Shown here piece by piece: positions 1,147-63,283 of a DNA stretch of 64,000 nucleotides. Made by a program: the position numbers and the translations under genes. How positions within the stretch are numbered: the first letter of the stretch is position 1; each line of letters starts with the position of its first letter. The notes under the pieces are model-generated. The model ran no database searches. It saw nothing but the letters and a program-made list of their open reading frames with translations, and was not told the DNA's origin. This stretch comes from Escherichia coli (GTDB lineage Bacteria > Pseudomonadota > Gammaproteobacteria > Enterobacterales > Enterobacteriaceae): assembly GCF_048403405.1 (NCBI RefSeq), contig NZ_CP183129.1; one strand, given 5' to 3'.

Positions 1147-1152
1147 TGGCGA

Positions 1153-2817: not shown

Positions 2818-2847
2818 GTTTTCTCTTTCCTGTGGACCGATGCAAGA

Positions 2848-2874
2848 TTTTCGGCCTGGAAAGGAAAAACTTTA
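2848..2874 (-). promoter_or_regulatory. sigma28 (FliA) class III flagellar promoter for tsr
   Basis: Minus strand reads TAAAGTTT-N11-GCCGAAAA, a near-perfect match to the FliA consensus TAAAGTTT-N11-GCCGATAA, about 30 nt upstream of the tsr start. Confidence 0.6.
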
Positions 2875-2935
2875 TGAAAAGGTGTAACCCGCCATCCATG
2901 GAAAAACCAGGCGCTGGTTATCAGATATTAAAAAG

Positions 2936-3382: not shown

Positions 3383-3604
3383 TATCTTTCCCCTGAAAAA
3401 TTCAAAATCATTAATATAGAAACAGTTAATCATCACGTTACCGGGACTGCGCTGCCCCTGCAATTCTTCATTTTATCAAAATTGAGCATGTTTTGTTAAC
3501 TTGCTGATATTTAATATTTTATTATCTTTAAATGTAAATAGTTTGTTAATTAGATCACATTTACATCACTTACTTTTGCCAAACTACGCAATCGGGAATA
3601 AAAG

Positions 3605-3628
3605 TAATCATTAACATATTAATGATTA
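3605..3628. promoter_or_regulatory. Perfect 10-bp inverted repeat, candidate HpaR operator at the hpaG promoter
   Basis: TAATCATTAA-cata-TTAATGATTA, 26-49 bp upstream of the hpaG start; related half-sites AATCATTAAT (3406-3415) and TTAATCATCA (3427-3436) sit next to the hpaR start. Confidence 0.5.
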
Positions 3629-3653
3629 AGATGATCGAATCCGAGGAGTGGTA

Positions 3654-6406: not shown

Positions 6407-6407
6407 T

Positions 6408-8530: not shown

Positions 8531-9319
8531 ATGGAAAACAGTTTTAAAGCGGCGCTGAAAGCAGGCCGCCCGCAGATCGGATTATGGCTGGGGCTAAGTA
8601 GCAGCTACAGCGCAGAGTTACTGGCCGGAGCAGGATTCGACTGGTTGTTGATCGACGGTGAGCACGCGCCGAATAACGTGCAAACCGTGCTCACCCAGCT
8701 ACAGGCGATTGCGCCCTACCCCAGCCAGCCGGTAGTACGTCCGTCGTGGAACGATCCGGTGCAAATCAAACAACTGCTGGACGTCGGCACACAAACCTTA
8801 CTGGTGCCGATGGTTCAAAACGCTGACGAAGCCCGTGAAGCGGTACGCGCCACCCGTTATCCCCCCGCCGGTATTCGCGGTGTGGGCAGTGCGCTGGCCC
8901 GCGCCTCGCGCTGGAATCGCATTCCTGATTACCTGCAAAAAGCCAACGATCAAATGTGCGTACTGGTGCAGATCGAAACTCGTGAGGCAATGAAGAACCT
9001 ACCGCAGATTCTGGACGTGGAAGGGGTAGACGGCGTGTTTATCGGCCCGGCGGATCTGAGCGCCGATATGGGTTATGCCGGTAATCCGCAGCACCCGGAA
9101 GTGCAGGCCGCCATTGAACAGGCGATCGTGCAAATCCGTGAAGCGGGCAAAGCTCCGGGGATCCTGATCGCCAATGAGCAACTGGCAAAACGCTACCTGG
9201 AACTGGGCGCGCTATTTGTCGCCGTCGGCGTTGACACCACCCTGCTCGCCCGCGCCGCCGAAGCGCTGGCAGCACGGTTTGGCGCGCAGGCCACGACCGT
9301 TAAGCCCGGCGTGTATTAA
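8531..9319 (+). CDS. hpaI: 2,4-dihydroxyhept-2-ene-1,7-dioate aldolase
   Basis: 262 aa from ATG 8531 with GGAGAG RBS at 8521-8526; the ORF-track start at 8390 is an upstream extension overlapping hpaH. Confidence 0.9.
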
Positions 9320-9395
9320 TGCTGAATGCGCTTATCCGGCTTACAGCAGTACCAAACTGTAGCCGGATAAGGCGTTTACGCCGCATCCGCCATAA
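9320..9395. repeat. REP (repetitive extragenic palindrome) copies
   Basis: tgcgcttatccggcttacagc...gtagccggataaggcgtttacgccgcatccg, the canonical E. coli REP/PU consensus, between hpaI and hpaX. Confidence 0.55.
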
Positions 9396-9436
9396 ATCTT
9401 GTCGTACCCTACAAAAATCCCATTAGAGGAAGAAAA

Positions 9437-10813
9437 ATGAGCGACACCTCACCTGCCATACCGGAAAGTATCGATCCGGCAAATCAGCATAAAACGCTGA
9501 CTGCCGGACAACAGGCGGTTATTAAGAAGCTATTTCGCCGCCTGATCGTCTTTCTGTTCGTGCTGTTTATCTTCTCGTTCCTTGATCGCATCAACATCGG
9601 CTTTGCCGGGCTAACGATGGGACGCGACCTCGGTCTGAGCGCCACCATGTTTGGCCTCGCCACCACCCTGTTCTATGCCGCTTATGTCATCTTCGGCATT
9701 CCCAGCAACATTATGCTGAGTATTGTCGGTGCGCGGCGCTGGATCGCCACCATCATGGTGCTCTGGGGCATCGCCTCTACGGCCACCATGTTTGCCACTG
9801 GCCCCACCAGCTTATACGTACTGCGTATACTGGTTGGCATTACCGAAGCCGGCTTTCTGCCTGGCATTCTGCTGTATTTAACCTTCTGGTTTCCGGCCTA
9901 TTTCCGCGCCCGTGCCAACGCCTTGTTTATGGTAGCAATGCCGGTAACGACAGCGCTGGGATCGATCGTTTCCGGCTACATTTTGTCGCTGGATGGCGTA
10001 ATGGCATTAAAAGGCTGGCAGTGGCTGTTTTTGCTGGAAGGCTTCCCGTCGGTATTACTCGGCGTCATGGTGTGGTTCTGGCTTGATGACTCACCGGACA
10101 AAGCTAAGTGGCTGACGAAAGAAGACAAAAAATGCCTGCAAGAGATGATGGATAACGATCGTCTGACGCTGGTTCAGCCAGAGGGAGCCATCAGTCACCA
10201 CGCCATGCAACAACGCAGCATGTGGCGGGAGATCTTCACTCCGGTGGTGATGATGTATACCCTGGCGTATTTCTGCCTGACCAACACACTTAGTGCAATC
10301 AGCATCTGGACACCGCAGATCCTACAAAGCTTTAATCAGGGCAGCAGTAATATCACCATCGGCCTGCTGGCCGCCGTACCGCAGATTTGTACCATTCTCG
10401 GGATGATCTACTGGAGCCGTCACTCAGATCGCCGCCAGGAACGAAGGCATCACACCGCCCTTCCTTATTTGTTCGCTGCCGCTGGTTGGTTACTGGCTTC
10501 GGCAACTGATCACAACATGATCCAGATGCTGGGGATCATTATGGCTTCGACCGGATCATTCAGCGCAATGGCGATTTTCTGGACAACACCGGATCAGTCC
10601 ATCAGCCTGCGGGCACGAGCGATCGGTATTGCGGTGATCAACGCCACTGGCAACATTGGTTCAGCGTTAAGTCCGTTTATGATCGGCTGGTTGAAAGATC
10701 TGACCGGCAGCTTTAACAGTGGATTGTGGTTTGTTGCCGCGCTGCTGGTGATTGGTGCGGGGATTATCTGGGCAATTCCAATGCAGTCCTCCCGTCCGCG
10801 AGCGACCCCGTAA
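9437..10813 (+). CDS. hpaX: 4-hydroxyphenylacetate permease (MFS)
   Basis: 458 aa, 12-TM MFS-type protein inside the hpa cluster. Confidence 0.9.
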   Translation: MSDTSPAIPESIDPANQHKTLTAGQQAVIKKLFRRLIVFLFVLFIFSFLDRINIGFAGLTMGRDLGLSATMFGLATTLFYAAYVIFGIPSNIMLSIVGARRWIATIMVLWGIASTATMFATGPTSLYVLRILVGITEAGFLPGILLYLTFWFPAYFRARANALFMVAMPVTTALGSIVSGYILSLDGVMALKGWQWLFLLEGFPSVLLGVMVWFWLDDSPDKAKWLTKEDKKCLQEMMDNDRLTLVQPEGAISHHAMQQRSMWREIFTPVVMMYTLAYFCLTNTLSAISIWTPQILQSFNQGSSNITIGLLAAVPQICTILGMIYWSRHSDRRQERRHHTALPYLFAAAGWLLASATDHNMIQMLGIIMASTGSFSAMAIFWTTPDQSISLRARAIGIAVINATGNIGSALSPFMIGWLKDLTGSFNSGLWFVAALLVIGAGIIWAIPMQSSRPRATP

Positions 10814-10822
10814 GGAACGACG

Positions 10823-11713
10823 ATGTGTGACCGTCAGATTGCCAATATTGATATCAGCAAAGAGTACGATGAAAGCCTGGGCACGGACGATGTGCATTAT
10901 CAGTCCTTCGCCCGCATGGCGGCATTTTTTGGCCGCCATATGCTGCCACATCGCCACGAACAGTACTTTCAGATGCATTTCCTCAATAGCGGACAGATTG
11001 AGCTACAGCTTGACGATCATCGCTACTCGGTGGAAGCGCCCCTGTTTGTCCTGACGCCGCCGTCAGTACCTCATGCGTTTATTACGGAGTCTGACGCCGA
11101 CGGTCATGTGTTGACGGTACGGGAAGATCTGATCTGGCCCCTGCTGGAAGTTCTTTATCCGGGCACTCGGGAAACCTTCGGCCTGCCGGGGATTTGCCTG
11201 TCACTGGCAGATAAACCCGACGAACTGGCAGCGCTGGAACACTATTGGCAACTGATAGAGCGGGAATCGGTGGAACAACTGCCTGGACGGGAACACACCC
11301 TGACGTTACTGGCACAGGCAGTATTCACCCTACTGCTGCGTAACGCAAAACTCGACGACCATGCCGCCAGCGGGATGCGCGGAGAATTAAAACTGTTCCA
11401 GCGTTTTAATATGCTGATTGAAAGCCATTTTCATCAGCACTGGACAGTACCGGATTACGCTAACGAACTGCATATCACCGAATCACGTCTCACGGACATC
11501 TGCCGCCGCTTTGCCAACCGTCCGCCAAAACGGTTGATTTTCGACAGGCAGCTGCGAGAAGCCAAGCGGCTGCTGCTGTTTTCTGATAACGCCGTGAACA
11601 ATATTGCCTGGCAACTCGGTTTTAAGGATCCGGCTTATTTTGCGCGCTTTTTTAATCGTTTAGTCGGTTGCTCGCCCAGTGCTTATCGTGCCAAAAAAGT
11701 ACCTGTGACGTGA
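10823..11713 (+). CDS. hpaA: AraC/XylS-family activator of hpaBC
   Basis: 296 aa; C-terminal AraC-type helix-turn-helix (IAWQLGFKDPAYFARFFNRLVGCSPSAYR). Confidence 0.85.
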   Translation: MCDRQIANIDISKEYDESLGTDDVHYQSFARMAAFFGRHMLPHRHEQYFQMHFLNSGQIELQLDDHRYSVEAPLFVLTPPSVPHAFITESDADGHVLTVREDLIWPLLEVLYPGTRETFGLPGICLSLADKPDELAALEHYWQLIERESVEQLPGREHTLTLLAQAVFTLLLRNAKLDDHAASGMRGELKLFQRFNMLIESHFHQHWTVPDYANELHITESRLTDICRRFANRPPKRLIFDRQLREAKRLLLFSDNAVNNIAWQLGFKDPAYFARFFNRLVGCSPSAYRAKKVPVT

Positions 11714-11963
11714 AAATCCCTTAGCCTTAACGGGAAACCAGGCACCACCTGCTATTCCCCTTTCTCCGCCTGGAGCAAGGGGATTTAGTAACGTCAAAAA
11801 TCGCTAAAAGCGACCTCGATCACAAAACCGTACCCGACCTGAAAAGTACCAGCCATTGTCCCAAAAGTGTCTTCCCGTAATCGCCCCTTCAAGCTTCAAT
11901 TGAATAACAAAAACAACACACAAAATTAACAATCGTATTCCGATTAATACTGTAGAGGTCGAC

Positions 11964-16862: not shown

Positions 16863-17819
16863 ATGAACCCGATTGCAGTTACCCTACTCACCGGTTTTTT
16901 AGGCGCGGGCAAAACCACCCTGCTGCGCCATATTCTTAACGAACAACACGGCTACAAGATTGCCGTGATTGAAAACGAATTCGGCGAAGTCTCCGTTGAT
17001 GATCAACTGATTGGCGACCGCGCCACGCAGATCAAAACGCTGACCAACGGCTGCATCTGCTGTTCGCGCTCCAACGAGCTGGAAGACGCACTACTCGACC
17101 TGCTGGATAATCTCGACAAGGGCAATATTCAGTTCGACCGTCTGGTCATTGAATGCACCGGCATGGCCGATCCCGGCCCGATTATTCAGACCTTTTTCTC
17201 CCATGAGATTTTATGCCAGCGCTACCTGCTGGACGGGGTGATTGCGCTGGTGGATGCGGTACATGCCGATGAGCAGATGAACCAGTTCACCATCGCCCAG
17301 TCCCAGGTTGGCTACGCCGACCGTATTCTGCTGACTAAAACCGACGTCGCAGGCGAAGCAGAGAAACTGCGTGAACGCCTGGCGCGCATCAACGCCCGTG
17401 CACCGGTCTACACCGTCACCCACGGCGATATCGACCTGGGCCTGCTATTCAACACCAACGGTTTTATGCTGGAAGAGAACGTGGTCAGCACCAAGCCACG
17501 TTTCCACTTTATCGCGGACAAACAAAACGATATTTCGTCGATTGTGGTGGAACTGGATTACCCGGTAGATATCAGCGAAGTTTCCCGGGTGATGGAAAAC
17601 CTGCTGCTGGAATCGGCGGATAAACTGCTGCGTTACAAAGGGATGCTGTGGATTGACGGCGAACCTAACCGCCTGCTGTTCCAGGGCGTCCAGCGCCTCT
17701 ACAGCGCCGACTGGGACAGGCCATGGGGCGATGAAACACCGCATAGCACGATGGTGTTTATCGGGATTCAGTTGCCGGAGGATGAGATTCGGGCGGCGTT
17801 TGCGGGACTCAAAAAGTAA
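16863..17819 (+). CDS. yjiA: COG0523-family P-loop GTPase (zinc-associated metallochaperone-like)
   Basis: 318 aa from ATG 16863; Walker A GFLGAGKTT and CxCC motif (GCICCS); the ORF-track start at 16779 is an upstream extension. Confidence 0.9.
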   Translation: MNPIAVTLLTGFLGAGKTTLLRHILNEQHGYKIAVIENEFGEVSVDDQLIGDRATQIKTLTNGCICCSRSNELEDALLDLLDNLDKGNIQFDRLVIECTGMADPGPIIQTFFSHEILCQRYLLDGVIALVDAVHADEQMNQFTIAQSQVGYADRILLTKTDVAGEAEKLRERLARINARAPVYTVTHGDIDLGLLFNTNGFMLEENVVSTKPRFHFIADKQNDISSIVVELDYPVDISEVSRVMENLLLESADKLLRYKGMLWIDGEPNRLLFQGVQRLYSADWDRPWGDETPHSTMVFIGIQLPEDEIRAAFAGLKK

Positions 17820-17856
17820 CCAGCCCTCCAACATCACAATACCTGAGACTTTATCA

Positions 17857-17883
17857 CCCTCATATTCCTCCAGAATATGAGGG
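17857..17883. terminator. Hairpin terminator between convergent yjiA and pac
   Basis: ccctcatattc-ctcca-gaatatgaggg perfect 11-bp stem. Confidence 0.5.
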
Positions 17884-17896
17884 CTTTCGGGCTTAA

Positions 17897-20437
17897 TTAT
17901 CTCTGAACGTGCAACACTTCCTGCGACTCCTTATGCGCCTCCACATCCTGCTTCGTTAACCAGAGCGACTTACGGCCAAAATTTTCGTACATTTTCAGCT
18001 GATCTTCATAGTGCTTATCAACTGTTCCATCGGGAGCAATAAACCCACTCTGACCGGGTGCGACCACATCCCAGGCAAGCACAGGACGATCGCTTGTCGT
18101 TGGTGAGAAAACAATCATATCGTTTTCTGTTCCACGGTTTTGATACTCCGCCTGATGACGCGTTTCTTCCGCTGCGGCCTGCGGTACACCAAAGAAATTA
18201 TTTGCCCGGAACGTTAAGGCCATTGCAGGTGTTTTCCAGTTACTCACATTATTGCCATAGCGTTTGGAAAGAGTCTCCCAGGTATCTTCCAGCGCAGCCA
18301 ACACAACCTCCTGCTGTGGTTTCCCAGCAAACAGATCAACCGCCTGTGGGATTGGTGATTTGTCTCCCTGCACCGCCTCATACAAAATTTTTGCTCCAAC
18401 ACTTATATTCAGCGAACCAGTTGGGCCGTCCTGGGTTGTTTCGTAGCCACTGGCGCTGTACCACTTATCAAATGGCATAGGTACGGCAGCCACTACGGTA
18501 CGCTTCAACATACTGGTCAGCCAAACGTTCAGGATGGCAGAGCCTGGCTGCTGCCAGGTTTTACCATCATCATTAAGCAAATTGATGCCATCCCAACGTG
18601 TTAATGTTTCTACCAACTGACGACGCGGATCGCTCTGTGTCAAACCAGATGTCGCTGCTTGCAGAGTAGGTAAAAAAAGCCTCAGGTTAAGATCCTGACG
18701 ACTGGTTTGGCGAATAACATCCCATGCCTGATCAGCAGTTAAGCGTGGCTTTTGCTCAAGCAGTCGGTCGATCTCCGTAACGCGATCTGCACCACCCCAC
18801 AAAAAGGCAAACAGATCTGAAGCGGGATAATCTTTTTGGGGAGAATTGTTCCAGTTAGCAATATATCCCGACTGGGGGTTATACACCTTAGGGTTCATTT
18901 CAAAAGGCAATAGCCCTTTCCAGTCCCATTTTCCCGTACCAGGAACGGGTAATCGCGGATCATGGCCTGATTGACGATCTGGATAAGCACCAGTATGAAC
19001 ATAACCAATATTGCCGTTTACATCAGCATAGTACCAGTTGATGGTCAGTGCTTGTTTCGCTGCCTGCTGTGTCCACTCCTGCCAATTTTTGGCCTTCATC
19101 TGATGAGTCCAGGCCAGCAAAGACGCCACCTCTTTACCATCCCATGCGCGGGATTTAGCGTAAGCCGTTTGTGTCGTCTGGTCAGTTTGGAGAATGTTGC
19201 CATGCACCGTACGCCAGACAGTAAAGGTCTCTGCCTGACCATTTTTCACCGTAATGGTTTCCTCACGGCTTAACATTTTCACCCACTTACCATTATGCAA
19301 GTAGTAGCCTGGTTTCTCTGCCGACAGCCGTTCAGCAAAAATATCGACATCATCGCCGAAACCTGCCGTTGATCCCCAGGAAATCACACCATTATGACCA
19401 AAAACCAGCCCAGGATAGGCAAATGGTGTATTGCCAGTGACATCATAACCAGCACCGTGCAGACCAATACCATAAGTATACGCAGGCGCATACCAGCCAA
19501 ACTGCGGACCATTTACCATGATTGCTTTCGCATCCTGGGCTTTGCTTTTGCCGATCACCCACATATTGCTGGTCGTTGGATACCCCGCCAGACCATTGGC
19601 ACCACCCTGTGCAAATTGTGCAGCAATAGTTTCCCGGTTCTTCCCTGCTGTTAACGCCAGCAGTGCGCCATCCGCCCCTTTTGCTGGTCGGTCAAGCATT
19701 GGTGCAGGTAAATCGTAGCGTGGCAACAGAGCTGCTGTTTGCGAGTTTTGCTGATTAAATTTAAGTGGGTAGTTACTCTCTTGTACGGCAATAGTGGTTG
19801 GCGCTGATGGGTTTACCAGCCATTTCAACTGATTAAATACCGCCATGCCTTGTGATACACCATATTTATCTTTTAAAGCCGTTAGCAGTGCCAGATTATC
19901 AATTTCGCTAGTGCTATCAGAGAAGCGGTTTGCCATGGTGCCCACAAATATCATCGCGACATCAAACGGTTCCCAGCGCTTAGGAGTAAAGCCAAATGTA
20001 TTAAACTGTTTTGGTAAGAGCGTCTCTGGATTGGTATTTACCTTATCAATCCAGGCATTCATTCCATCAGCGTAGCCTTGCAGAATGGACATATCCTCTG
20101 GGGAAAGGGCAGCAATTTGCGCCCGGATAGCATCCGGCCAGTAGTTACGACGGATATCTTTATCAAATTTCACAAAATCTTTGCCAAGCACTTCCGCGAC
20201 AGTCCCTTGAGTACTGCGACGTGCCATTTCCATCTGAAAAAGGCGATCTTGTGCTACTACATAGCCATAGCCATAAAATAGGTGCCATGTATCATTGGCA
20301 TAAATATGCGGCATGCCGTATTCATCGCGAACAATCTTTATCTCACTTGACGACTGCTCAGCCAGTGCAGGTAAGCTCCAATAATACATCAGGGAAGCAG
20401 TAACACAGTTCACGATCATACGATTTCTATTTTTCAT
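17897..20437 (-). CDS. pac: Penicillin G acylase precursor (Ntn hydrolase; signal peptide, alpha subunit, spacer, beta subunit)
   Basis: 846 aa; signal peptide; beta-subunit N-terminal nucleophile motif SNMWVIGKS; recognised as E. coli penicillin amidase. Confidence 0.9.
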
Positions 20438-50989: not shown

Positions 50990-51110
50990 CAGTCCCCTCG
51001 CCCCTCCGGGGAGAGGGTTAGGGTGAGGGGAACAGACCAGCAAAGTGCGCTTTGTTTATGCCAGATGCGACGCTGACGCGTCTTATCTGGCCTACAAAGG
51101 GCTAACGTGC
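50990..51110. repeat. Clustered repetitive extragenic elements (BIME-like: gagggg-rich unit plus REP)
   Basis: cccctcgcccctccggggagagggttagggtgaggggaa followed by tgccagatgcgacgctgacgcgtcttatctggcctac. Confidence 0.5.
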
Positions 51111-51167
51111 AGGTTTTTAGCTTCAGGTAATATTGCGTACCTGCATTAGCAATGTCCTGTGATTTCT

Positions 51168-52070
51168 TTATTGATAAACAAAAGTCACGCCAATAATCGA
51201 TTGCACATTCCCTGCAGTCACCTGCCCTCCGGTACGTGCGTAATTTGCCGTTAATCCCAGACTTACCGCCGAAGTCCCTACTGCTCCTAACGATACCGTG
51301 TTATTCGCTGGAATAATCGTACCGTTGCGTGTCAACTGTACGCCGACGCCCTGCGCTGGTGAAAACGAGGCGGTATTGGTGAAAATCGAGTTGCCCGCAT
51401 CTGCGGTTGTGCCGGAGAGGTAATACCCCAGGTTTTGGCTTTTCGCACAATAAACGGTAAGAGGAATTGGCACTGAACCAGGGTAGTCCGGCAGAGTAAC
51501 GGTGACATCACGAGCAGAAACATCGCAGCCGCCAGTGGGCACCACCACATCATTATTGGCGTAAATATTCCACACAAACTGAAAATCATCGCTGTTATAG
51601 TTGTTGGTCTGTCGCAAAATAAGCACGGCAATTAATGAACCAGCTTTAATCGCCACCCCGCCCGCACTGCTCACAGGCGTCAAATAAAGCGCCACCGGCC
51701 ACGGCTTATCCGTTCTCGAATTATAAACAACGCGCGGCGTTTCGCTGGTGGTCGGAAATGGATAGCTACTGCCACTATATTTTACGGTCCCGGAAAAATT
51801 AGATAACACGCCGCCGTAAGCCGAGCCTCGTTGCAGTGTGACATAGTCTGTAATGGTTTCCGGGTAATCGTTATGGCAAAAGATTTGCGTCGAAAGATCT
51901 ACGACCAGGTTTTGCCCCACATTCACGGCGGGCGCAAGGTTTACATAAACATTGGCGCTGCCACCGCCAATAGGGATAGCGGTGCCATTGGCGGTTTTAC
52001 AGGCGAATGACCAGGCATTTACCGACCAGCCCATCAGCAGTACAGCAAACAGGGTAATAACTCGTTTCAT
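51168..52070 (-). CDS. fimH: Type 1 fimbrial tip adhesin (mannose-binding)
   Basis: 300 aa from MKRVITLFAVLLMGWSVNAWSFACKTANGTAIPIGGGSANVYVNLAP... Confidence 0.9.
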   Translation of the reverse strand: MKRVITLFAVLLMGWSVNAWSFACKTANGTAIPIGGGSANVYVNLAPAVNVGQNLVVDLSTQIFCHNDYPETITDYVTLQRGSAYGGVLSNFSGTVKYSGSSYPFPTTSETPRVVYNSRTDKPWPVALYLTPVSSAGGVAIKAGSLIAVLILRQTNNYNSDDFQFVWNIYANNDVVVPTGGCDVSARDVTVTLPDYPGSVPIPLTVYCAKSQNLGYYLSGTTADAGNSIFTNTASFSPAQGVGVQLTRNGTIIPANNTVSLGAVGTSAVSLGLTANYARTGGQVTAGNVQSIIGVTFVYQ

Positions 52071-52089
52071 TACAATCATCTCTTCGGGT

Positions 52090-52593
52090 TCAGCTGTAGG
52101 TATAGGTGATGCTAATCACTGCCTGAATGGTTCCCTGAGTGGCTCTGCCATTTACCGTCAATGCTCTGACCTGTAACGGGAAGTGCGCTGATTGTGAGGA
52201 ATCATCCACCTGAACTGTTTTGGTTGCGCCAGTATTCAATGTGTTGCCACTGTCATCCTGTAGCTCTAACTGGATGTTTTGCGCGGTCCCCTGGTTTTTA
52301 TAATATCCGGTACTGTCGGCTGCCCCGCTGAAGCTGGCAGTGACCCTCGACGTTCCCACCGGACAATTAGTCAACTCAAGCGCAACATCATGCCAGGCCG
52401 ATGCCGCCCCGGCAGACATCAGACTGAAAGAATAAAGATCGCCGAGATCTACCGTGGCATTGGTGGTGGAAACCGTGCACGGTTTGGCGACGACCTTACC
52501 GTTCACCGTGATGGTGACATCGGCTGCCTGTATCGTCGCACTTGCGAGCGCCAATATTGCCGCCAATAAATACCCACGTTTGCGCCATTTCAT
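52090..52593 (-). CDS. fimG: Type 1 fimbrial minor subunit
   Basis: 167 aa from MKWRKRGYLLAAILALASA... Confidence 0.9.
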   Translation of the reverse strand: MKWRKRGYLLAAILALASATIQAADVTITVNGKVVAKPCTVSTTNATVDLGDLYSFSLMSAGAASAWHDVALELTNCPVGTSRVTASFSGAADSTGYYKNQGTAQNIQLELQDDSGNTLNTGATKTVQVDDSSQSAHFPLQVRALTVNGRATQGTIQAVISITYTYS

Positions 52594-52605
52594 GAGCATC
52601 TCCAG

Positions 52606-53136
52606 TTACTGATATTCAAGAGTGAAGGTAGCCGTGGCATTGATATGCCCTGCAGTGACAGGCACCTGTGTCGCCATTAGCCGGGCGTAAAAATTCAGCG
52701 TATTTGGTTTACCCGGCGTCAGGGTCGTCCACGAAATCGCGGACGATGGGGCATTAAGGGGTATCTGATTTTGTTGCTCATTCAGAAGCTGTATTCCCAG
52801 TCCCGCAGCCGCTGACACCGTATTTTCAAGTGCAAGCAGGTTGGCATTGTGGCTATCTGCAACACCGGTAAACCCAACTTTTACGGCAGAAACGGCATTA
52901 CCACAGGGTGACAGCAAAATACGAAATGGAACGACAGGAGTCGTCGCGCCAATGTTGTTAAATTGCTTCGCCGCGTTTTCCATCAGATCAACAGTAAAAT
53001 TGGTTGATTCAGCGGCCACACTACAGCCGTTATCTCTGACATAGCCGCGGATAGTAATCGTGCTATCCGCAGCCAAAGCGTGACTTACCGCCAGCCACAA
53101 AAAAGCGCACAGAAGATAAAAAGGTTTGTTTCTCAT
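52606..53136 (-). CDS. fimF: Type 1 fimbrial minor subunit
   Basis: 176 aa from [22 protein letters not shown]... Confidence 0.9.
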
Positions 53137-53145
53137 CACGCCCCC

Positions 53146-55782
53146 TTAACGACATTCAGCTGATAGCTGGGTTAATAACTGCTGCTGACTCTCTGGTGGC
53201 AGTTGATAATTGGCGACACAGTGAGCATTTTCCTCTTCTCCCCATTTCACCTGAACTTTTCCCGCTAAAGGCATTCCGCTGAGGTAAACCTGACCATTAT
53301 CCGCAACAATGCCGCTACTCTGGCTACTCTCTGATGTCACCATCGCCCCAAACGGCAGCGGCTTATTATTGTGGGTTAGCGTCATGAGCAGTTTTATCCC
53401 AACGCGCGCTTTAAACTCTGCTCGCACGATCGCCCCACGGGTGGGAACAACGTTAGCGACCGCGTTATCTAAATCGACGTTATCAGCCAGGGTATTGGTA
53501 TCCAGCGCTACTCTGTTTTCCCGATACTCAGTGGCATAAGGCAGCACGGCATAACCACGCCAGTCGGTACGCACCCCCGTCTGGTTTTCGACTTTTGCAT
53601 CTTTTGCGCCAGGCGCTTTAACAAGCACCACCGTATCGTTTAACGGCTGCCCCAGCGTTACGCCATTGGCATGAGCCAGTACCCCACCGCTGACTCCGTA
53701 ATAGAGCTGCTTAATATCATCGCTATGGCTGTAACCGATATTGGCATTGCCGTAACCACCGCGATAATTCAGCGTGGCGTAGCCTGTACTTCCGCTATTA
53801 CCATCGCCTCCCCCGGCATAGCCGGTTTGCACGCTATAGCTGAGGTTGTTGTCTTCCAGCAACGTACCGTATACGCCAGCCAGATTGGTCATCCGACCGT
53901 TGAGATCGTGTGACATGCTGTAGCTGGCACTGGCATGTCGCCACTGAGATTTACTGTCAGAACGCAGCCAGTGGCTGAAAGGAATATTGACGTTAAGCGC
54001 TAACATCTGATCCCGTCCTTTTTGCCAGGCGTTTTTCGTCAGGCTATAGCTGAGCGTCCAGTTGATATCTTCGAATGCAGTATTTAAACCAGCCTGGAAT
54101 TGCTCATCGACATTACTCGTTCCCCAATAAGTTTGATGGCTACCACTCAAATACAGTGTTGATGTGCGCCCGAGTTGCTGAGTAACGGTGAGTTGTAATT
54201 TCCCGCGTTTGTTATAAGCGAGATTGTAATAGTCGGTGAATTTCGGCTTAACCTGAATAACACCATCCTGTGTTTCGATGTTGTAGCCATTCATTCGACT
54301 GTATGTTGTATCAGCGAAATTAAAATACCCACTGGTCGAATAACGGTAACCCACTAACTGAATATTCGTGCCTGATTCATTGAGCGATTTGTTATAGAGA
54401 AAACGCACCGATTGTCCGTCATGCTGACTGTCATCGGGAAGTGTGGAATTAGCCTGCGTCATATCCACAGACAGAGCGCCCAGTGCCCCCATGTTTTTCC
54501 CGATACCGAAATTAAAAGCACGATAACGATCCGCCAGTTGCGTTCCACCATATATTGTCCAGCCAGCCGGAAGGCCGTGGAGTAATGTACTCTGGAAAAA
54601 GCGGGGTTTTTCCTGCTGCGCATTTCCACTACGGTATTCTCCTGCCGTAATGGAATAACGAGTATGCCCTTCACGTTGCAAAAGCGGGACTGACGAATAG
54701 GGTACGGTAAAGATCTGCGTGCTGCCGTCAGCCTCTTTAATCGTTACCTGCAAGTCACCACTATTACCTGCGGCATAGATATCGTTGATGGTAAAAGGCC
54801 CCGGCGGCACCGTACTATTATAAATGTCATACCCATTTTGTTTAATAGTGACCTGTGCAGTACCACGAGCAATACCGTGGATCACCGGGGCAAATCCTCT
54901 TTGGCTATCGGGTAACATATTGTCATCTGAGGCCAATTGTGCGCCGCGAAAGTTAATACCATCGAAAATATCGCCCTGGGTATAACCATCACCCAGCGTC
55001 AGCCGGGAACGTAACGGAATTATGTCTCGCTCAAGCCAGGTATTGATATGCTGCCATTTATTTTTGCTACCTGATGAACTGTCGCTACTGTTATAACTCC
55101 AGGTGGTATTGTCGCGTAAACGCCACGCACCAATATTTAGCCCACTCTGTAGGTTTAAATATGCATAATGGCTGTTACTACCAATCCGATTCTGTACACT
55201 ATTTCCGCTGAAATTATAATTGAGCAAGCCTGCATTAATACCGGGATCCCACAACTCAGGAGGAATATATCCACGCGCGCGATTACTCATAAATGCCTGA
55301 GGGATCGTCAGGTTGAGTCGCTGCTGACCAACATCTAAATGCGCAGTAGCGTCATGGATCATTGAGGTTAATGGCACGCAGGCATCATCCGCCAGCAGAT
55401 TCATACCGGAGACAGAAGCCGTATTCAGCCCCATACTGGCAAGTTGCACGCGTGTCAGGCAGGGAACAATCCCTTGTTCACTGTCGCCCGTGTTAAATGT
55501 GACATCACGCGTTGCCATATAAGCATTATTCAAATAGATATCGACGCGATACGTCCCTGGCGGTAATTCTTGCCCATTTTCAAAACGCGATAAATCGGCC
55601 ACAGCCTGGGGATCATCCGCTAAAAAGCGCGGATTAAAATAGAGTTCGGCAGATGACAAAGGTGCCTGTGCGGCAAAAGCACAGGCGACAAAGAGCCGGA
55701 CAAAAAGACCAGCCAAACGATGCTTACGAATATGCAAGCATTGTGTGTTTCGCTGGTAAAGTCTTAAATTCAGATATGACAT
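53146..55782 (-). CDS. fimD: Type 1 fimbrial outer-membrane usher
   Basis: 878-aa usher-family protein. Confidence 0.95.
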   Translation of the reverse strand: MSYLNLRLYQRNTQCLHIRKHRLAGLFVRLFVACAFAAQAPLSSAELYFNPRFLADDPQAVADLSRFENGQELPPGTYRVDIYLNNAYMATRDVTFNTGDSEQGIVPCLTRVQLASMGLNTASVSGMNLLADDACVPLTSMIHDATAHLDVGQQRLNLTIPQAFMSNRARGYIPPELWDPGINAGLLNYNFSGNSVQNRIGSNSHYAYLNLQSGLNIGAWRLRDNTTWSYNSSDSSSGSKNKWQHINTWLERDIIPLRSRLTLGDGYTQGDIFDGINFRGAQLASDDNMLPDSQRGFAPVIHGIARGTAQVTIKQNGYDIYNSTVPPGPFTINDIYAAGNSGDLQVTIKEADGSTQIFTVPYSSVPLLQREGHTRYSITAGEYRSGNAQQEKPRFFQSTLLHGLPAGWTIYGGTQLADRYRAFNFGIGKNMGALGALSVDMTQANSTLPDDSQHDGQSVRFLYNKSLNESGTNIQLVGYRYSTSGYFNFADTTYSRMNGYNIETQDGVIQVKPKFTDYYNLAYNKRGKLQLTVTQQLGRTSTLYLSGSHQTYWGTSNVDEQFQAGLNTAFEDINWTLSYSLTKNAWQKGRDQMLALNVNIPFSHWLRSDSKSQWRHASASYSMSHDLNGRMTNLAGVYGTLLEDNNLSYSVQTGYAGGGDGNSGSTGYATLNYRGGYGNANIGYSHSDDIKQLYYGVSGGVLAHANGVTLGQPLNDTVVLVKAPGAKDAKVENQTGVRTDWRGYAVLPYATEYRENRVALDTNTLADNVDLDNAVANVVPTRGAIVRAEFKARVGIKLLMTLTHNNKPLPFGAMVTSESSQSSGIVADNGQVYLSGMPLAGKVQVKWGEEENAHCVANYQLPPESQQQLLTQLSAECR

Positions 55783-55847
55783 TATTCCTCCGGTTTAAAT
55801 CACCCGGCAGTCAATTCTTTTTATTCAGGCGAAAAATTCCCCCTGCG

Positions 55848-56573
55848 TTATTCCATTACGCCCGTCATTTTGGGGGTAAGTGCGCCATAATCATTTATTG
55901 TTCGGTAAGTAATATTGCTTCCTGCATCAGAAGGCAATTTAACCGTGCTTTCGCCCATTGGAGGCACCAATGCATTTTCAAGAACCCGGGTTCCGGCATT
56001 CAACTCTGTTACCGTCAGGTAATAGGGTGTCGGGTTAATCAGCGTCAGAGAATTCGCGCTACGACGAAATCTTAATTTTTCTGCGGCCTGATCGGGTGGC
56101 AACGCTAATTTAGCCGGGCGATAGTACAGTTTAATGCGGCTGATAATTGCGAGCTGTAGCGTATTCTCAGTCAATTTTGATTTATCCATTGACGGAATCG
56201 CTTTAACATTCATCCAGAATAAACTTTCCCGATCCTGTGGCAATTGGTTATTTGTTGCATCAAGAATACGCAAGATATTCTCTCTTTTTCCCTTCATCGC
56301 AAACAGAGGAGGCGTCACGATAAAACGACCATCCTTTACACCATCGGCATTTTCCACCCATGATTGAATTAAATAGGTACTATTTTCATCATTATTTGTC
56401 ACGGCAAGTTGCACTTGTTTTTGCCCTGCCGGATAAATTACGCGAGTCGCACCTAAGGCCACTCCCGCTTCAGCGCGTCCGGCAACCATCATTGCCATGA
56501 ACATCAGGATACCTGCCAGCAAGCAGAATGTTATTTCCTGCGATTTCCTTACATTGACGTTTTTATTACTCAC
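55848..56573 (-). CDS. fimC: Type 1 fimbrial periplasmic chaperone
   Basis: 241 aa PapD-like chaperone. Confidence 0.95.
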   Translation of the reverse strand: MSNKNVNVRKSQEITFCLLAGILMFMAMMVAGRAEAGVALGATRVIYPAGQKQVQLAVTNNDENSTYLIQSWVENADGVKDGRFIVTPPLFAMKGKRENILRILDATNNQLPQDRESLFWMNVKAIPSMDKSKLTENTLQLAIISRIKLYYRPAKLALPPDQAAEKLRFRRSANSLTLINPTPYYLTVTELNAGTRVLENALVPPMGESTVKLPSDAGSNITYRTINDYGALTPKMTGVME

Positions 56574-56609
56574 TGTCCTGTTCCTGTTATCACATTATCT
56601 GCTGAACAA

Positions 56610-57149
56610 TTACTGATAGGTTAAAGAGAACCAGGCCTGGGCATTGGCGATGCCGCCAGTAACCCGACGCCCGGTAGCACGATATTTGGCGATGAAATGT
56701 AGCGAAGTAGAGCCTGAGTAAAGCCGTTTCCAGTTTGCTGGAGGACGATTAATCGGTACGAGGTTTCCTTCATCATCAAATAACGCTACGCCAATATTTG
56801 TGGCTATCCCTGGCCCCTCTCCCACGGAAAGCACATCCGGATTTTTACCATCCGCGACACCGTGAAACGCCACACCCACACGTTCACTCACCACCGTGCT
56901 ACATTCCCGTAAATGAATAACAAAAGGCACCGGTGCGCTATCTTCCCCTACCGCATGAAACCGGTTACTGCTGATTTGCCCCATATTGACCGTCATTTGT
57001 TTATCACCAGCTTCAACTCGGCAAGTTTCCGCAATAATGACGCCCTGAAATTGCATATTTCCGCCGGGCAGCGTGGTATTCCATTTATTTCCGGCCAGAG
57101 CAAACATTGGCAGTAACGACGCTAATAGAAATAATCTCTTCCTTTTCAT
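56610..57149 (-). CDS. fimI: Fimbrin-like protein FimI
   Basis: 179 aa from the internal Met ([19 protein letters not shown]...); the ORF track extends upstream to 57281. Confidence 0.8.
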
Positions 57150-57213
57150 CGTTATTTTTATCGCACAAGGGTGGGCATCCCTGCCCGTAATGACGTCCCT
57201 GAACCTGGGTAGG

Positions 57214-57768
57214 TTATTGATACTGAACCTTGAAGGTCGCATCCGCATTAGCAGCACCCGGGGTTGCCTCGCCGATTGCATAATAACGCGCCTGGAACGG
57301 AATGGTGTTGGTATCGTTATTCAAGGTTGTTTGTGCACTAAATGTCGCACCGTCCAGCGTCAGCTCATTTCCTGTTCTGTCCAGTATCTGTACACCAACA
57401 TTTGTTGCGCTACCCGCAGCTGAACTCTGCAGAGCCAGTACTTTAGGATGAGCACTGTCAATCGCAGTCCCCAAGAAGGCAACAGCGGCTTTTGTGGCAA
57501 CACTGGTATCGCAATCATTCAGCTGAATGTTAAAACCGACAGCAGAGCTGGTTGCTCCAGTCTGCTTCAGACTAGCGGTACGAACCTGGCCCAACTGAAC
57601 GGTTTGATCAACAGAGCCTGCATCAACTGCGCAAGCGGCGTTAACAACTTCCCCTTTAAAGTGAACGGTCCCACCATTTACCGTCGTGGGTGTAGTTTCA
57701 GCCAGAGCCGCTGTAGAACTCAGGGACAGAGCGGACAGAACAACAATTGCCAGAGTTTTAATTTTCAT
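57214..57768 (-). CDS. fimA: Type 1 fimbrial major subunit (variant allele)
   Basis: 184 aa; signal peptide and pilin C-terminus ...ATFKVQYQ; the central region differs from the K-12 allele as I recall it. Confidence 0.9.
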
Positions 57769-57887
57769 ACTGCTTTCCTTTCAAAAAACTATTTCTAAAT
57801 CGACATGGGCAGTCGTTCTGTACACTTTGTTTTGTCAACGAGTTTGACTGCCAACACTGCACAGTTTTCCCCCAAAAGATGAAACAT

Positions 57888-58201
57888 TTGGGGCCATTTT
57901 GACTCATAGAGGAAAGCATCGCGCACAAACTTTTTCAGTTTATTTGTTGGCTTAATATTCTATTGTTATCTTTATTTATAGATTTTTATATTGCATGAGG
58001 TGGTTTTTGGAGAGAAGAATGAGGAAGATGCGTCGAGCCACAGAAACGTTAGCTTTACATTTGGCGGAGGTGATGTGAAATTAATTTACAAGAGAAATAA
58101 TTTACATATCAAACAGTTAGATGCTTTTTATCGTTTTTTAATATTTTTATGCTTGAGAAAAAATACGTAACTTATTTATGATATGGACAGTTTGGCCCCA
58201 A
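57888..58201. promoter_or_regulatory. fimS: fimS invertible phase-variation switch bounded by 9-bp inverted repeats
   Basis: TTGGGGCCA at 57888-57896 and its inverse TGGCCCCAA at 58193-58201, 314 bp end to end, lying between fimE and fimA. Confidence 0.85.
58153..58183 (+). promoter_or_regulatory. sigma70 promoter inside fimS (TTGAGA-N18-TATGATA), directed towards fimE
   Basis: -35 TTGAGA at 58153-58158 and -10 TATGATA at 58177-58183 on the + strand, just inside the fimE-proximal inverted repeat; points away from fimA. Confidence 0.5.
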
Positions 58202-58248
58202 TTGTCTTGTATTTATTTGTTTTTTAACTTTATTATCAATGAGTTAAA

Positions 58249-58845
58249 TCAAACCTCTTCTCTTTTTAATTTTTCGTTTATGAGATTATTTCTTTCCCAT
58301 AATCCGGCAAAACGAGCAGCATTACTGGCGGTATAACGTACAGTATGGCGAATATTTCGATGCCCGAGATAATCCTGAATTAAACGGGTATCGGCACCAC
58401 GCTCCGCCAGTTCATAACCGCAAGCATGCCTTAACATATGAGGATGAGTCTGCGTTACGGTTCCAGCTTCAATACCTGCATCGCGAATAATGCGATAGGC
58501 CTGCTGGCGAGAAAGCCGACTCCCGCGGCGAGAAATAAATATAGCGTCGGTCCGGTCAGCGCCTTTCCAGTTAGCACGTTCCTGGGTCCAGCGTTCCACG
58601 GCTTCACGCTCATCAAAACGTAACGGGTGAACGGTAGAAAATCCGTTCTTCAGTCGGCGAATATTTATTCGACCTTCATTAAGGTCAAGATCCTGATAAT
58701 GCAGATCAAGCAGTTCACTAATACGCATCCCATGCCGATATGCCAACAGAATAAGACAATAATCTCTGGCTCCCGTTGCCCCGTAACAAACCGCCTGCAT
58801 CATGGCCTGAACTTCTTTACCGGTAAGATAACGACGTTTACTCAC
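58249..58845 (-). CDS. fimE: Tyrosine recombinase for the fim switch (ON-to-OFF bias)
   Basis: 198 aa lambda-integrase-family recombinase (…HPHMLRHACGYELAERG…LGHRNIRHTVRYT). Confidence 0.95.
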   Translation of the reverse strand: MSKRRYLTGKEVQAMMQAVCYGATGARDYCLILLAYRHGMRISELLDLHYQDLDLNEGRINIRRLKNGFSTVHPLRFDEREAVERWTQERANWKGADRTDAIFISRRGSRLSRQQAYRIIRDAGIEAGTVTQTHPHMLRHACGYELAERGADTRLIQDYLGHRNIRHTVRYTASNAARFAGLWERNNLINEKLKREEV

Positions 58846-59322
58846 AATAGTAGTACTCCTGACTGAGATATATTTGAATGAATACCTATAGGAAACCTCA
58901 ATCGGTCAAAATTAGCCCAATAGATAAAAAGATAACCACACACGAAGTGATGTGGCTATCAGTCAATTACATTAAATATCATACAAAAATAAAATATCAC
59001 TGATGTGACAACATCTATTTTCATTGATTTGATTCAATATAACAATAGATTGCAGTGGATTAACTTCCAGTTGCTTAAAAAATAAAGAAAAAAGTATGAA
59101 AACAGGCGAATTTAAGTGATGTGTAAATTTATGAATGATTTTGTTTATTTATTTTGAAGAACATAAACCATTGGATTTTGTATGGGTATGGTTAACTTAA
59201 TGTTTATTATGATAATTAAGAATCACACTTACAATAACATCAATTAATAAATGGTTAATCATTTTTGATATATCGTAAGAATAATGTAGTTTTTAACACC
59301 ATCCCTGGTATCTCAACTATCT

Positions 59323-59925
59323 CTATAAAACAGCGTGACGCTGTCTCCCTCTGGCTCTATCCCAGATGCCGTAAAAACGCCCTGCATTGCTGGCGGTATA
59401 CCAGACAGTATGACGAATATTGCGATGCCCAAGATAATCCTGGATAAGTCGCGTATCTATTCCCATATTCGCCAAAGCAAAACCACACGAATGGCGTAAC
59501 ATGTGCGGATGAATCTCCAGTGACAACCCGGCATTACCGCCGGAAGTCGAAATAATATGGTAAAACTGTTGCCGAGAAAGCGGATTCCCCTTACGTGATA
59601 AAAATACCCACTCGCTCTCAGCATGCGGATAAGAAGTACGGATACTCAACCAATTTTTTAAAGCCTGAACTTCTTTGTTCAATAGCGGGTGCGTTGTTGA
59701 AAAGCCTTTTTTTAATCGATGGATATATATACACTTTGCCTTAAGATCAATATCCGAAATCCTCAATCGACAAATTTCACTCGCCCGGAAACCATGAATA
59801 AAACAAAGCAAAGTCAGACAATAATTACGTGCTGCATGAGGCCCGGTATTTGCTGCTTTAAGGAGTGACTCGATTTCACTATGGGTAAGGAAGTTCCTTT
59901 TTTTGTTATCAGCCTTATTCTTCAT
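59323..59925 (-). CDS. fimB: Tyrosine recombinase for the fim switch (bidirectional)
   Basis: 200 aa paralogue of FimE (…HPHMLRHSCGFALANMG…LGHRNIRHTVWYT). Confidence 0.95.
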   Translation of the reverse strand: MKNKADNKKRNFLTHSEIESLLKAANTGPHAARNYCLTLLCFIHGFRASEICRLRISDIDLKAKCIYIHRLKKGFSTTHPLLNKEVQALKNWLSIRTSYPHAESEWVFLSRKGNPLSRQQFYHIISTSGGNAGLSLEIHPHMLRHSCGFALANMGIDTRLIQDYLGHRNIRHTVWYTASNAGRFYGIWDRARGRQRHAVL

Positions 59926-60938
59926 CGTTTTCCCTTATAATTACAGACGCGCACTAGCTGTGCTGGGTTAGCAATAATCCAACATTTTAATCCTGATTAT
60001 GTTTATAAAAGCGAACGTTTGCTTAATAACTAACGTAAGTGGACCAGTTCTTCTGAGCGAATTTAAATGGAGTAGCGATAGTTACTTATAATAACTTTGC
60101 CATACAAACGCCATGCTCTTGCATGCTATGTACCTTTATATATTTATCAATCTGATACGAATCTAATAATAACCCTCATCATTAATGCAACTAATCTTAT
60201 CTATATATCATGTGATATGTTCTGTAACAAGTAAAATCAACATAAAAAATTCAGCAAAATTTAATATTCGTTCAACTAGCCGTCTCACATATGACATTAT
60301 TAGTCAACTCCACTTGCCACAAAATGGCTATTTCATGGAACGCAGTAATTTCTTAGTGGCTATTATCAAGCTAATTCTTAGGTCCCTAGCGATTATTCCT
60401 GGCTGGTTCGTCAGTTTAGGTCATGAGATTGTTACATTCCTTTTTATCCTGGAGATATGGGGGAACGCAGGCGACGCTTTTTCATCTACATCCGTTGGTA
60501 AATATGGCTTTGGTCACTACGACTTAAACCCTCCTCAATCACAGCTACTCGCCGGGCGATACGGCAAACAAACTAATTGAAACATCATCCTGAAAACACC
60601 AGCATCAACAAGCCTCTCCAGATCGACATCAGGAGTGACCAGTTACAAGCCACAAACCAAGAAACATATTTCATGATGAGAATTATGCTCAGCCTGATGG
60701 CGGGTAAACACTTATTTTCACCAAGCTCACTGAGTTAGCTTGCAAAGCTTTCTTTGTTTAGATTCTAAATAAATTATTTATAAAACATATAGTTAAAAGA
60801 AAATCTTTAGTTTTTGAAGACCACCGCAAGTGTTCGTCTGGCTTCACATGGCATCTGCCTCTTAGAAAAAGATCGACATATTTTGTGACACGAATTGCAA
60901 ATCTGGTTTTGTTGTATAGATTGCGTGATTTTTGATCT

Positions 60939-60961
60939 GGTATAACAGGTATAAAGGTGCG
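60939..60961. promoter_or_regulatory. NanR-type operator (GGTATA repeats)
   Basis: GGTATAacaGGTATAaaGGTGCG in the nanC-fimB intergenic region, about 415 bp upstream of nanC. Confidence 0.5.
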
Positions 60962-61376
60962 CCACGATAGTCAATGAAACTGGGCATCTCGCAATCTATG
61001 GCAAACATCACTTCAGTTCTTTCTCATCGGGTGATGAAAACGCACTTCAGTCTGAAAGGAATATGAAAATGAGATCAACAGACACTCTATTTTATGACTC
61101 TGGGTAAAATGGATTGAGTAAGTGATATAGCTTACGAACATTCAAATCAATTAAACATCAGAAGAGATTTTATACTCAGGTATTTAATCTGGTTCTCTGT
61201 TTATTTAAATAATGTGGAAAGAGAATTTTCACAGGAGACCTTATACAAAAAATATAAAATAAGCTACCCGTTGCCAAAGACACTATAAGCCTGGCAAAAA
61301 ATATTACACAACATAAATGCTAATTGTTTATGCGGGCTTTGTATTGCTTTCTGTATCCTACAAATGAGTGAAATTT

Positions 61377-62093
61377 ATGAAAAAGGCTAAAATACTTTCT
61401 GGCGTATTATTACTGTGCTTTTCGTCACCATTAATTTCTCAGGCTGCGACACTGGACGTACGTGGTGGATATCGTAGCGGAAGCCATGCCTATGAGACTC
61501 GACTCAAAGTCAGTGAGGGATGGCAAAATGGATGGTGGGCAAGCATGGAAAGTAATACCTGGAATACCATTCATGATAATAAAAAGGAAAATGCCGCACT
61601 CAATGATGTTCAGGTTGAAGTTAATTACGCGATTAAACTTGATGATCAATGGACGGTGCGCCCGGGAATGTTAACGCATTTTAGCAGCAACGGCACACGC
61701 TACGGACCCTACGTAAAACTGTCCTGGGACGCGACAAAAGATCTTAATTTTGGCATTCGCTATCGTTACGACTGGAAAGCTTACCGACAACAAGACTTAT
61801 CCGGTGATATGTCTCGTGATAACGTTCATCGTTGGGATGGATATGTCACTTACCATATTAATAGTGATTTCACCTTCGCATGGCAAACGACGCTATACAG
61901 CAAACAGAATGATTATCGCTATGCAAACCACAAGAAATGGGCGACGGAAAATGCCTTTGTTCTACAATACCATATGACGCCCGATATTACGCCATACATA
62001 GAATATGACTACCTTGACCGCCAGGGTGTTTACAACGGCAGAGATAATTTATCGGAAAACAGTTATCGCATTGGTGTGTCATTTAAACTGTAG
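61377..62093 (+). CDS. nanC: N-acetylneuraminic acid outer-membrane channel (KdgM family)
   Basis: 238 aa from ATG 61377 (MKKAKILSGVLLLCFSSPLISQA...). Confidence 0.9.
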   Translation: MKKAKILSGVLLLCFSSPLISQAATLDVRGGYRSGSHAYETRLKVSEGWQNGWWASMESNTWNTIHDNKKENAALNDVQVEVNYAIKLDDQWTVRPGMLTHFSSNGTRYGPYVKLSWDATKDLNFGIRYRYDWKAYRQQDLSGDMSRDNVHRWDGYVTYHINSDFTFAWQTTLYSKQNDYRYANHKKWATENAFVLQYHMTPDITPYIEYDYLDRQGVYNGRDNLSENSYRIGVSFKL

Positions 62094-62112
62094 TAGACAG
62101 GAGACAGTCACA

Positions 62113-63219
62113 ATGAATAAAACAATAACGGCGCTTACTATCATAATGGCTTCATTTGCCGCAAACGCGTCTGTATTACCGGAAACTCCTGTGCCATTTA
62201 AAAGTGGTACTGGAGCAATTGATAACGACACTGTCTACATTGGTTTAGGTAGCGCAGGTACGGCATGGTACAAGCTGGATACACAGGCCAAAAATAAAAG
62301 CTGGACAGCGTTAGCTGCATTCCCTGGCGGACCGAGAGATCAAGCAACCTCGGCATTTATTGATGGCAATCTGTATGTGTTTGGCGGCATTGGCAAAAAC
62401 AGCGAGGGCTTGACTCAGGTATTTAATGACGTACACAAATACAACCCCAAAACCAATAGCTGGGTTAAATTGATGTCGCACGCGCCGATGGGCATGGCGG
62501 GCCATGTGACTTTTGTACACAACGGAAAGGCTTATGTTACTGGCGGTGTTAACCAGAATATCTTCAATGGCTATTTTGAAGATCTCAACGAAGCTGGAAA
62601 AGATTCAACCGCTATAGATAAAATCAACGCCCACTATTTTGACAAAAAAGCAGAAGATTATTTCTTCAATAAGTTTCTGTTGTCTTTTGATCCCTCAACA
62701 CAGCAATGGAGTTACGCTGGCGAATCTCCCTGGTACGGAACGGCTGGTGCGGCGGTTGTGAATAAAGGTGATAAAACCTGGCTTATTAATGGCGAAGCCA
62801 AACCAGGATTACGAACGGATGCCGTATTTGAACTTGATTTCACCGGTAATAATTTAAAATGGAATAAGCTTGCTCCCGTCTCATCACCAGATGGCGTCGC
62901 TGGCGGTTTTGCAGGCATGAGCAATGACTCACTGATATTTGCCGGAGGGGCCGGATTCAAAGGTTCACGGGAAAATTACCAAAACGGTAAGAACTATGCG
63001 CATGAAGGCCTGAAAAAATCATATAGCGCTGATATTCATCTTTGGCATAACGGGAAATGGGATAAATCGGGCGAATTATCGCAAGGTCGGGCCTACGGAG
63101 TATCATTGCCCTGGAATAATAGTTTATTAATTATTGGCGGTGAAACTGCAGGCGGCAAAGCGGTGACGGATTCAGTTTTGATCTCTGTGAAGGATAATAA
63201 AGTCACAGTACAAAACTAA
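62113..63219 (+). CDS. nanM: N-acetylneuraminate mutarotase (Kelch-repeat beta-propeller)
   Basis: 368 aa from ATG 62113 (MNKTITALTIIMASFAANA...); the ORF-track start at 62005 is an upstream extension overlapping nanC. Confidence 0.9.
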   Translation: MNKTITALTIIMASFAANASVLPETPVPFKSGTGAIDNDTVYIGLGSAGTAWYKLDTQAKNKSWTALAAFPGGPRDQATSAFIDGNLYVFGGIGKNSEGLTQVFNDVHKYNPKTNSWVKLMSHAPMGMAGHVTFVHNGKAYVTGGVNQNIFNGYFEDLNEAGKDSTAIDKINAHYFDKKAEDYFFNKFLLSFDPSTQQWSYAGESPWYGTAGAAVVNKGDKTWLINGEAKPGLRTDAVFELDFTGNNLKWNKLAPVSSPDGVAGGFAGMSNDSLIFAGGAGFKGSRENYQNGKNYAHEGLKKSYSADIHLWHNGKWDKSGELSQGRAYGVSLPWNNSLLIIGGETAGGKAVTDSVLISVKDNKVTVQN

Positions 63220-63224
63220 TGCTT

Positions 63225-63248
63225 CAGGGCCCCGGTAAAGGGGCCCTG
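63225..63248 (+). terminator. Candidate hairpin after nanM
   Basis: cagggcccc-ggtaaa-ggggccctg perfect 9-bp stem; downstream T-tract is weak. Confidence 0.4.
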
Positions 63249-63283
63249 CTATCAATTTATCATTTCAATTACGCGAAAATTAT

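Follow-up and report, generated by a model that had tools for sequence, protein, structure and literature searches.

An apparently ordinary, invertible fimS switch assembled in phase OFF in an Escherichia coli chromosome

In which orientation is the promoter switch of the type 1 fimbriae fixed in the sequence analysed here, and does this orientation reflect anything other than the ordinary state of the system? The DNA in question, hereinafter the window, is a 64-kb stretch of an E. coli chromosome that encompasses the hpa cluster, yjiA, the uxu and gntP genes, the fim cluster, and nanC/nanM. An earlier note, made from the sequence alone, had described a repeat-bounded element between fimE and fimA as the fim switch captured in its OFF phase, with the internal promoter directed away from fimA. 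The evidence presented below indicates that fimS is almost certainly assembled in phase OFF in this chromosome, with the promoter not reading into fimA, with all its parts intact and in what looks like an invertible form.

The element occupies positions 57888–58201 (unstranded) and is delimited by its bounding repeats. The fimA-proximal 9-bp repeat (IRR), TTGGGGCCA, lies at 57888–57896 on the plus strand and is identical to the published fimS repeat (PMC9820224). Its exact reverse complement, which reads TGGCCCCAA on the plus strand, is located at 58193–58201 and represents the fimE-proximal repeat (IRL) on the minus strand. The repeat coordinates and the 314-bp length of the element, as given in the earlier note, proved exact when compared with the sequence itself and with the output of a repeat finder and a pattern search. 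The two arms form the core of an inverted pair separated by 296 nt, and the 9-mer occurs only twice in the 64-kb window, both occurrences being the fimS repeats. This count alone is not significant (2 observed against 0.68 expected, with at least two copies in 12 of 100 shuffles), so that the case for the repeats rests on homology and on geometry, that is, on an inverted pair with arms 296 nt apart that is located between fimE and fimA. Both the repeat sequence found here and the length of 314 bp are those of the published definition of fimS (PMC9820224). The element is AT-rich, with a GC content of 0.325 compared to 0.497 for the window as a whole. All the hallmarks of fimS with FimB and FimE for which we tested were found, namely, the repeats, the location, the recombinases, an internal promoter match, and IHF matches. 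We thus confirm that the element is fimS, the already known promoter switch of type 1 fimbriae in E. coli, which has been a textbook example of promoter inversion since 1985.

The genes around the switch are arranged in the order fimB-fimE-fimS-fimA-fimI-fimC-fimD, all on the minus strand, according to the list of open reading frames (ORFs) and to the RefSeq annotation of the 99.9% identical locus of strain ST2747. On one side of the element, fimA (57214–57768, minus strand), which encodes the major type 1 fimbrial subunit of 184 aa, has its start codon 119 bp from IRR, and is followed by fimI, fimC and fimD, which together span 53146–57150 on the minus strand (fimC, 55848–56573; fimD, 53146–55782; the end of fimI is approximate, all three being delineated from the ORFs and the ST2747 annotation). 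On the other side, the stop codon of fimE (58249–58845, minus strand), which encodes a tyrosine recombinase biased toward ON-to-OFF inversion, is located 47 bp from IRL, and fimB (59323–59925, minus strand), the gene for a tyrosine recombinase that inverts the switch both ways, lies beyond it. Both recombinases are 100% identical to their K-12 counterparts, and their catalytic residues are present at the published positions, R41, H136, R139 and Y171 in FimE, and R47, H141, R144 and Y176 in FimB (PMC9820224).

Several minor features of the structural genes are worth recording. The 184-aa FimA is of the same length in ST2747, ETEC4070 and UTI89, and 2 aa longer than in K-12 (182 aa); within the fim region, the window and K-12 diverge mostly in fimA, not in the switch. 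The mechanically called ORF of fimI (56610–57281, minus strand; 223 aa) overlaps the 3' end of fimA, whereas the RefSeq call is 540 nt long and encodes 179 aa; this overlap is an artefact of start-codon choice and is not real.

The sites for accessory proteins around the switch conform to the published layout, in which one IHF site lies within the switch and another, IHF-1, is adjacent to IRL (PMC9993118). Inside the switch, the sequence TATCAAACAGTTA at 58107–58119 (plus strand) matches the IHF consensus WATCAANNNNTTR and is consistent with the putative site IHF-2, and just outside IRL, a second consensus match, TATCAATGAGTTA at 58234–58246 (plus strand), is consistent with the putative site IHF-1. 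The 135-bp region used as a Fis/LRP-2 gel-shift probe (PMC9993118) corresponds to positions 57869–58003 (unstranded), at the promoter-distal end of the switch, next to IRR; the primers BSREVBIO and BSFORBIO map to this interval with 0 and 1 mismatches, respectively.

Within the interval 57700–58400, the best sigma-70 match identified by the promoter scan is TTGAGA-N18-TATGAT at 58153–58182 on the plus strand (10 of 12 positions), which we annotate as the predicted fimA promoter, with the -35 hexamer TTGAGA at 58153–58158, an 18-nt spacer, and the -10 hexamer TATGAT at 58177–58182. This match is located 10 nt from IRL, points across IRL to fimE and away from fimA, and occupies positions 266–295 of the element, the same as in UTI89. 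Weaker, 9/12 matches were detected at 57963–57992 on the plus strand and at 58112–58083 on the minus strand. Promoter-like sites are not enriched in the scanned interval, with 3 sites seen and 2.4 expected from shuffled sequences (sd 1.3), and for this reason, the scan was not used as stand-alone evidence; with the scan statistics at chance level, the identity of the promoter rests on homology to the characterised switch. We take the TTGAGA/TATGAT pair to be the fimA promoter mapped by Olsen and Klemm, who reportedly located the start of the fimA transcript in 1994; this putative assignment draws on where the motif lies with respect to the figures described in the literature. In the OFF state, the fimA-side boundary is the promoter-distal end (PMC9993118), and the window agrees with this arrangement, the promoter match being at the fimE-side end.

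These observations bear out most of what the earlier note had proposed for the promoter: the match adjoins the fimE-proximal repeat and reads the plus strand toward fimE, antisense to it, and fimA, on the minus strand, lies across the switch from the promoter end, with fimE and fimB also on the minus strand in the ORF list. The further statement that this is the only near-consensus promoter within the element stands insofar as it is the best match but not in the sense of its being the sole one, given the existence of the two 9/12 matches. The minus-strand site of this pair (58112–58083, TTGATA-N18-TAAATT) faces fimA in the OFF orientation, overlapping the IHF-2 consensus, and has probably arisen by chance in AT-rich DNA, because strains that carry this region locked in the OFF orientation are non-fimbriate (PMC6765310).

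Under the mechanism established for this system, the fimA promoter would reside inside the 314-bp segment next to one of the repeats, in this case IRL, the fimE-proximal one, and RNA polymerase would read the plus strand out of the switch toward the 3' end of fimE, antisense to that gene. With the promoter at the IRL end and reading the plus strand, the minus-strand fimAICDFGH operon would be left without a connected promoter, and fimI, fimC and fimD would not be transcribed from the switch promoter in the window orientation. Recombination within the 9-bp repeats, catalysed by FimB in both directions or by FimE from ON to OFF, would flip the segment, with IHF and Lrp bending the DNA for the inversion, and would reconnect the promoter to fimA. 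Flipping of the segment also determines whether fimE is connected to a Rho-dependent terminator located within fimS (PMC9993118). What the element is, how it is oriented and that its parts are intact can be read directly from the DNA; promoter activity and actual inversion in this strain would be expected by analogy with the published work on K-12 and UPEC.

The assignment of the ON and OFF states was anchored independently of the promoter prediction, by in silico versions of two restriction assays, by comparison with references of known state, and by comparison with a genome of the opposite orientation. The element contains a single HinfI site (GACTC, 57901–57905), 5 bp inside IRR, and a single BstUI site (CGCG, 57920–57923), near IRR, both of which are unstranded and serve as markers of orientation. 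With the primers Phase_L and Phase_R, the window yields a 559-bp amplicon (57704–58262) that HinfI cuts into fragments of 198 and 361 bp. This is the OFF pattern: in the published phase assay, a band of 489 bp denotes ON and one of 359 bp denotes OFF (PMC4349694), and fragments of 74 and 485 bp for ON and of 202 and 357 bp for OFF have been described as well (PMC6765310). With the primers OL4 and OL20, the 727-bp amplicon is cut by BstUI into fragments of 188 and 539 bp, again the OFF pattern, the published sizes being 539 and 187 bp for OFF and 433 and 293 bp for ON (PMC9993118). By contrast, the genome of ETEC4070 (NZ_CP122676.1), in which the switch has the opposite orientation, produces the ON patterns in silico, 482 and 78 bp with HinfI and 435 and 293 bp with BstUI. 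The difference between the in silico ON fragments (482 and 78 bp) and the published ones (489 and 70 bp or 485 and 74 bp) is treated here as a matter of rounding and cut-site convention, and the contrast between OFF and ON is unambiguous.

The comparison with other switches is in full agreement with these patterns. In UTI89, for which the reference genome is stated to be OFF (bioRxiv 10.1101/494401), the 314-bp switch is collinear with that of the window at 302 of the 314 positions, with 12 substitutions, but at only 99 positions if flipped, and the in silico digests are the same as for the window (a 559-bp amplicon cut into 198 and 361 bp by HinfI, and 188 and 539 bp with BstUI). The FimB and FimE accessions of UTI89 differ from those of K-12, whereas the proteins encoded in the window match the K-12 sequences exactly. 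The O157:H7 switch, which is locked OFF by a 16-bp deletion (PMC6765310), has the same orientation, repeats and promoter-proximal sequence as the window, but lacks the 16 bp that correspond to positions 58121–58136, such that the element is 298 bp long compared to the full 314 bp in the window. In K-12 MG1655, the switch is of the same 314-bp length, with identical 9-bp repeats, orientation and promoter hexamers and with identical FimB and FimE proteins, and the in silico fragments (198 and 362 bp, and 188 and 540 bp) form the same OFF pattern; the identity over the switch and the 60-bp flanks is 97.7%, and 6 of the 314 positions of the switch differ (57924, 57984, 58061, 58063, 58092 and 58130). 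ETEC4070 shares its flanks, repeats and genes with the window, but the interior is inverted, showing 96.6% identity to the window once flipped and 52.8% unflipped. The phase-OFF call of the earlier note is thus upheld by the HinfI fragments (198 and 361 bp), the BstUI fragments (188 and 539 bp), and collinearity with the OFF references UTI89 and O157:H7, and no observation contradicts it; moreover, the identity to a reference ON sequence that the note had named as grounds for refuting this call is not observed, as ETEC4070 yields the ON patterns.

To place the orientation in the context of the species, we compared the window with complete E. coli genomes, using a 901-bp query in the window configuration and requiring collinear coverage of at least 80%; 4,725 of these genomes hold the locus. 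The window orientation was found in 4,459 of the 4,725, and the query with the inverted interior was collinear in 251, so that the fimS segment occurs in both orientations at the species level, with a skew of 94.7% versus 5.3% among the 4,710 assemblies with an intact locus. About 15 genomes with the locus match neither orientation collinearly, and in a few complete genomes, the fimE-fimS-fimA stretch contains an insertion of the IS1A family. The predominance of OFF among assemblies is accounted for by the known bias of FimE: when both recombinases are made, its preference for switching from ON to OFF prevails, and the majority of cells are OFF (PMC9993118, PMC9096935). The OFF state in the assembly is the norm, shared by about 95% of complete genomes, and not a notable event. 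The description of the switch as captured in this phase accordingly needs qualification; no sign of a lock is apparent in cis, but the state itself is nothing special. Because the system is textbook and the OFF state is the norm, we claim no novelty for this locus. In annotation, it can be recorded as a type 1 fimbrial system that is intact and competent to switch, with a consensus phase of OFF, and otherwise it matters little. The strong bias of reference assemblies toward OFF should nevertheless be kept in mind when fimbriation is predicted from a genome, and it also matters for the mapping of RNA-seq or ChIP reads to the fim region.

The census bears directly on the alternative that fares best, namely, that the assembled orientation is an arbitrary choice by the assembler between co-existing orientations and carries no information on the culture. 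Most reads span an inversion of 314 bp with 9-bp repeats, and populations are commonly mixed (10.1101/494401); an assembler could in principle fix the minority orientation. Consensus assemblers, however, follow the majority of the spanning reads, and the skew of 94.7% to 5.3% over 4,710 assemblies fits the OFF bias of broth cultures (PMC9993118) rather than a coin flip, so that we regard an arbitrary choice as rather unlikely. It is reasonable to suppose, from the behaviour of consensus assembly and the FimE-driven OFF bias (PMC9993118), that the sequenced culture was mostly non-fimbriate.

We consider it less probable still, indeed very unlikely, that a lock keeps the switch in the OFF state, caused either by a defect in cis, such as the 16-bp deletion, an IS element in fimB or fimE, or mutations in the repeats, or by a bias in trans that involves Fis and FimE. 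Such a reading could appeal to the six positions at which the switch differs from that of K-12, to the fact that the trans-acting factors are encoded outside the window, and to the precedent of EPEC E2348/69, where an apparently intact switch stays OFF under the Fis and FimE bias (PMC9096935). The window switch, however, is of the full 314 bp, without the deletion characteristic of O157:H7, and its repeats are exact; neither FimB nor FimE is truncated, and each is identical at every residue to its functional K-12 counterpart; and no change affects the promoter hexamers or the IHF consensus sites, the six substitutions mapping outside the repeats, the hexamers and the IHF cores. Furthermore, ETEC4070, which shares the FimA accession WP_000695589.1 with ST2747, the closest match of the window, was assembled in the ON state. 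On these grounds (no 16-bp deletion, exact repeats, intact recombinases, unaltered hexamers and IHF consensus), a switch locked in cis was rejected. Because neither the recombinases nor the repeats nor the two IHF consensus sites are damaged, we expect the switch to be invertible, not locked, and it looks like an ordinary fimS sampled in its majority state. There is an equally slim chance that the six substitutions relative to K-12 shift the binding of nucleoid-associated proteins and so bias this lineage to OFF or alter its frequency of switching to an unusual one; one of them, at 57984, lies where the primer BSFORBIO maps, at the end of the region of the Fis/LRP-2 probe.

The possibility that the switch is actually ON, the wrong promoter or convention having been chosen, could draw on the 9/12 minus-strand site that faces fimA (58112–58083), but its probability is negligible and we rule it out, as the two published assays return OFF fragment lengths for the window, with ON lengths obtained only from the flipped ETEC4070, the window is collinear with UTI89, which is documented to be OFF, and with the locked-OFF, non-fimbriate O157:H7, and the minus-strand site lies outside the 58121–58136 deletion, such that O157:H7 retains this region while remaining non-fimbriate (an argument that applies at the level of the region, not of the hexamers).

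In blastn comparisons with ST2747, the identity of the window is 99.25% over 51040–64000 and about 98% outside the fim region. No tRNA genes or Rfam families were detected at threshold in tRNA and Rfam scans of the whole 64 kb. For two stretches in and around the hpa (4-hydroxyphenylacetate) cluster, 1–6800 and 9282–11841, blastn produced no alignment of more than 300 bp with the retrieved ST2747 stretch, with neighbouring segments about 98% identical; in the case of 1–6800, the sequence may lie beyond the end of the retrieved ST2747 locus. Between yjiA and yjiS/yjiR, the window contains an 846-aa ORF (17897–20437, minus strand) that is annotated as penicillin G acylase in 100%-identical genomes; at this position, ST2747 carries a cluster of about 10 kb with a type I restriction-modification system, symE and GmrSD. 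The arrangement with the penicillin G acylase (17000–21500) is covered by at least 80% in 1,068 of 5,426 complete genomes. A 1,746-aa ORF at 34004–39244 on the plus strand corresponds to an inverse autotransporter that is annotated as iatD in ST2747. Near the end of the window, the sialate O-acetylesterase gene that follows nanC/nanM (approximately 63284–63850, plus strand; mapped from ST2747) is truncated to a pseudogene, and beyond this gene, outside the limits of the window, ST2747 harbours an IS3 remnant, a type I Zorya system and a dnd phosphorothioation cluster.
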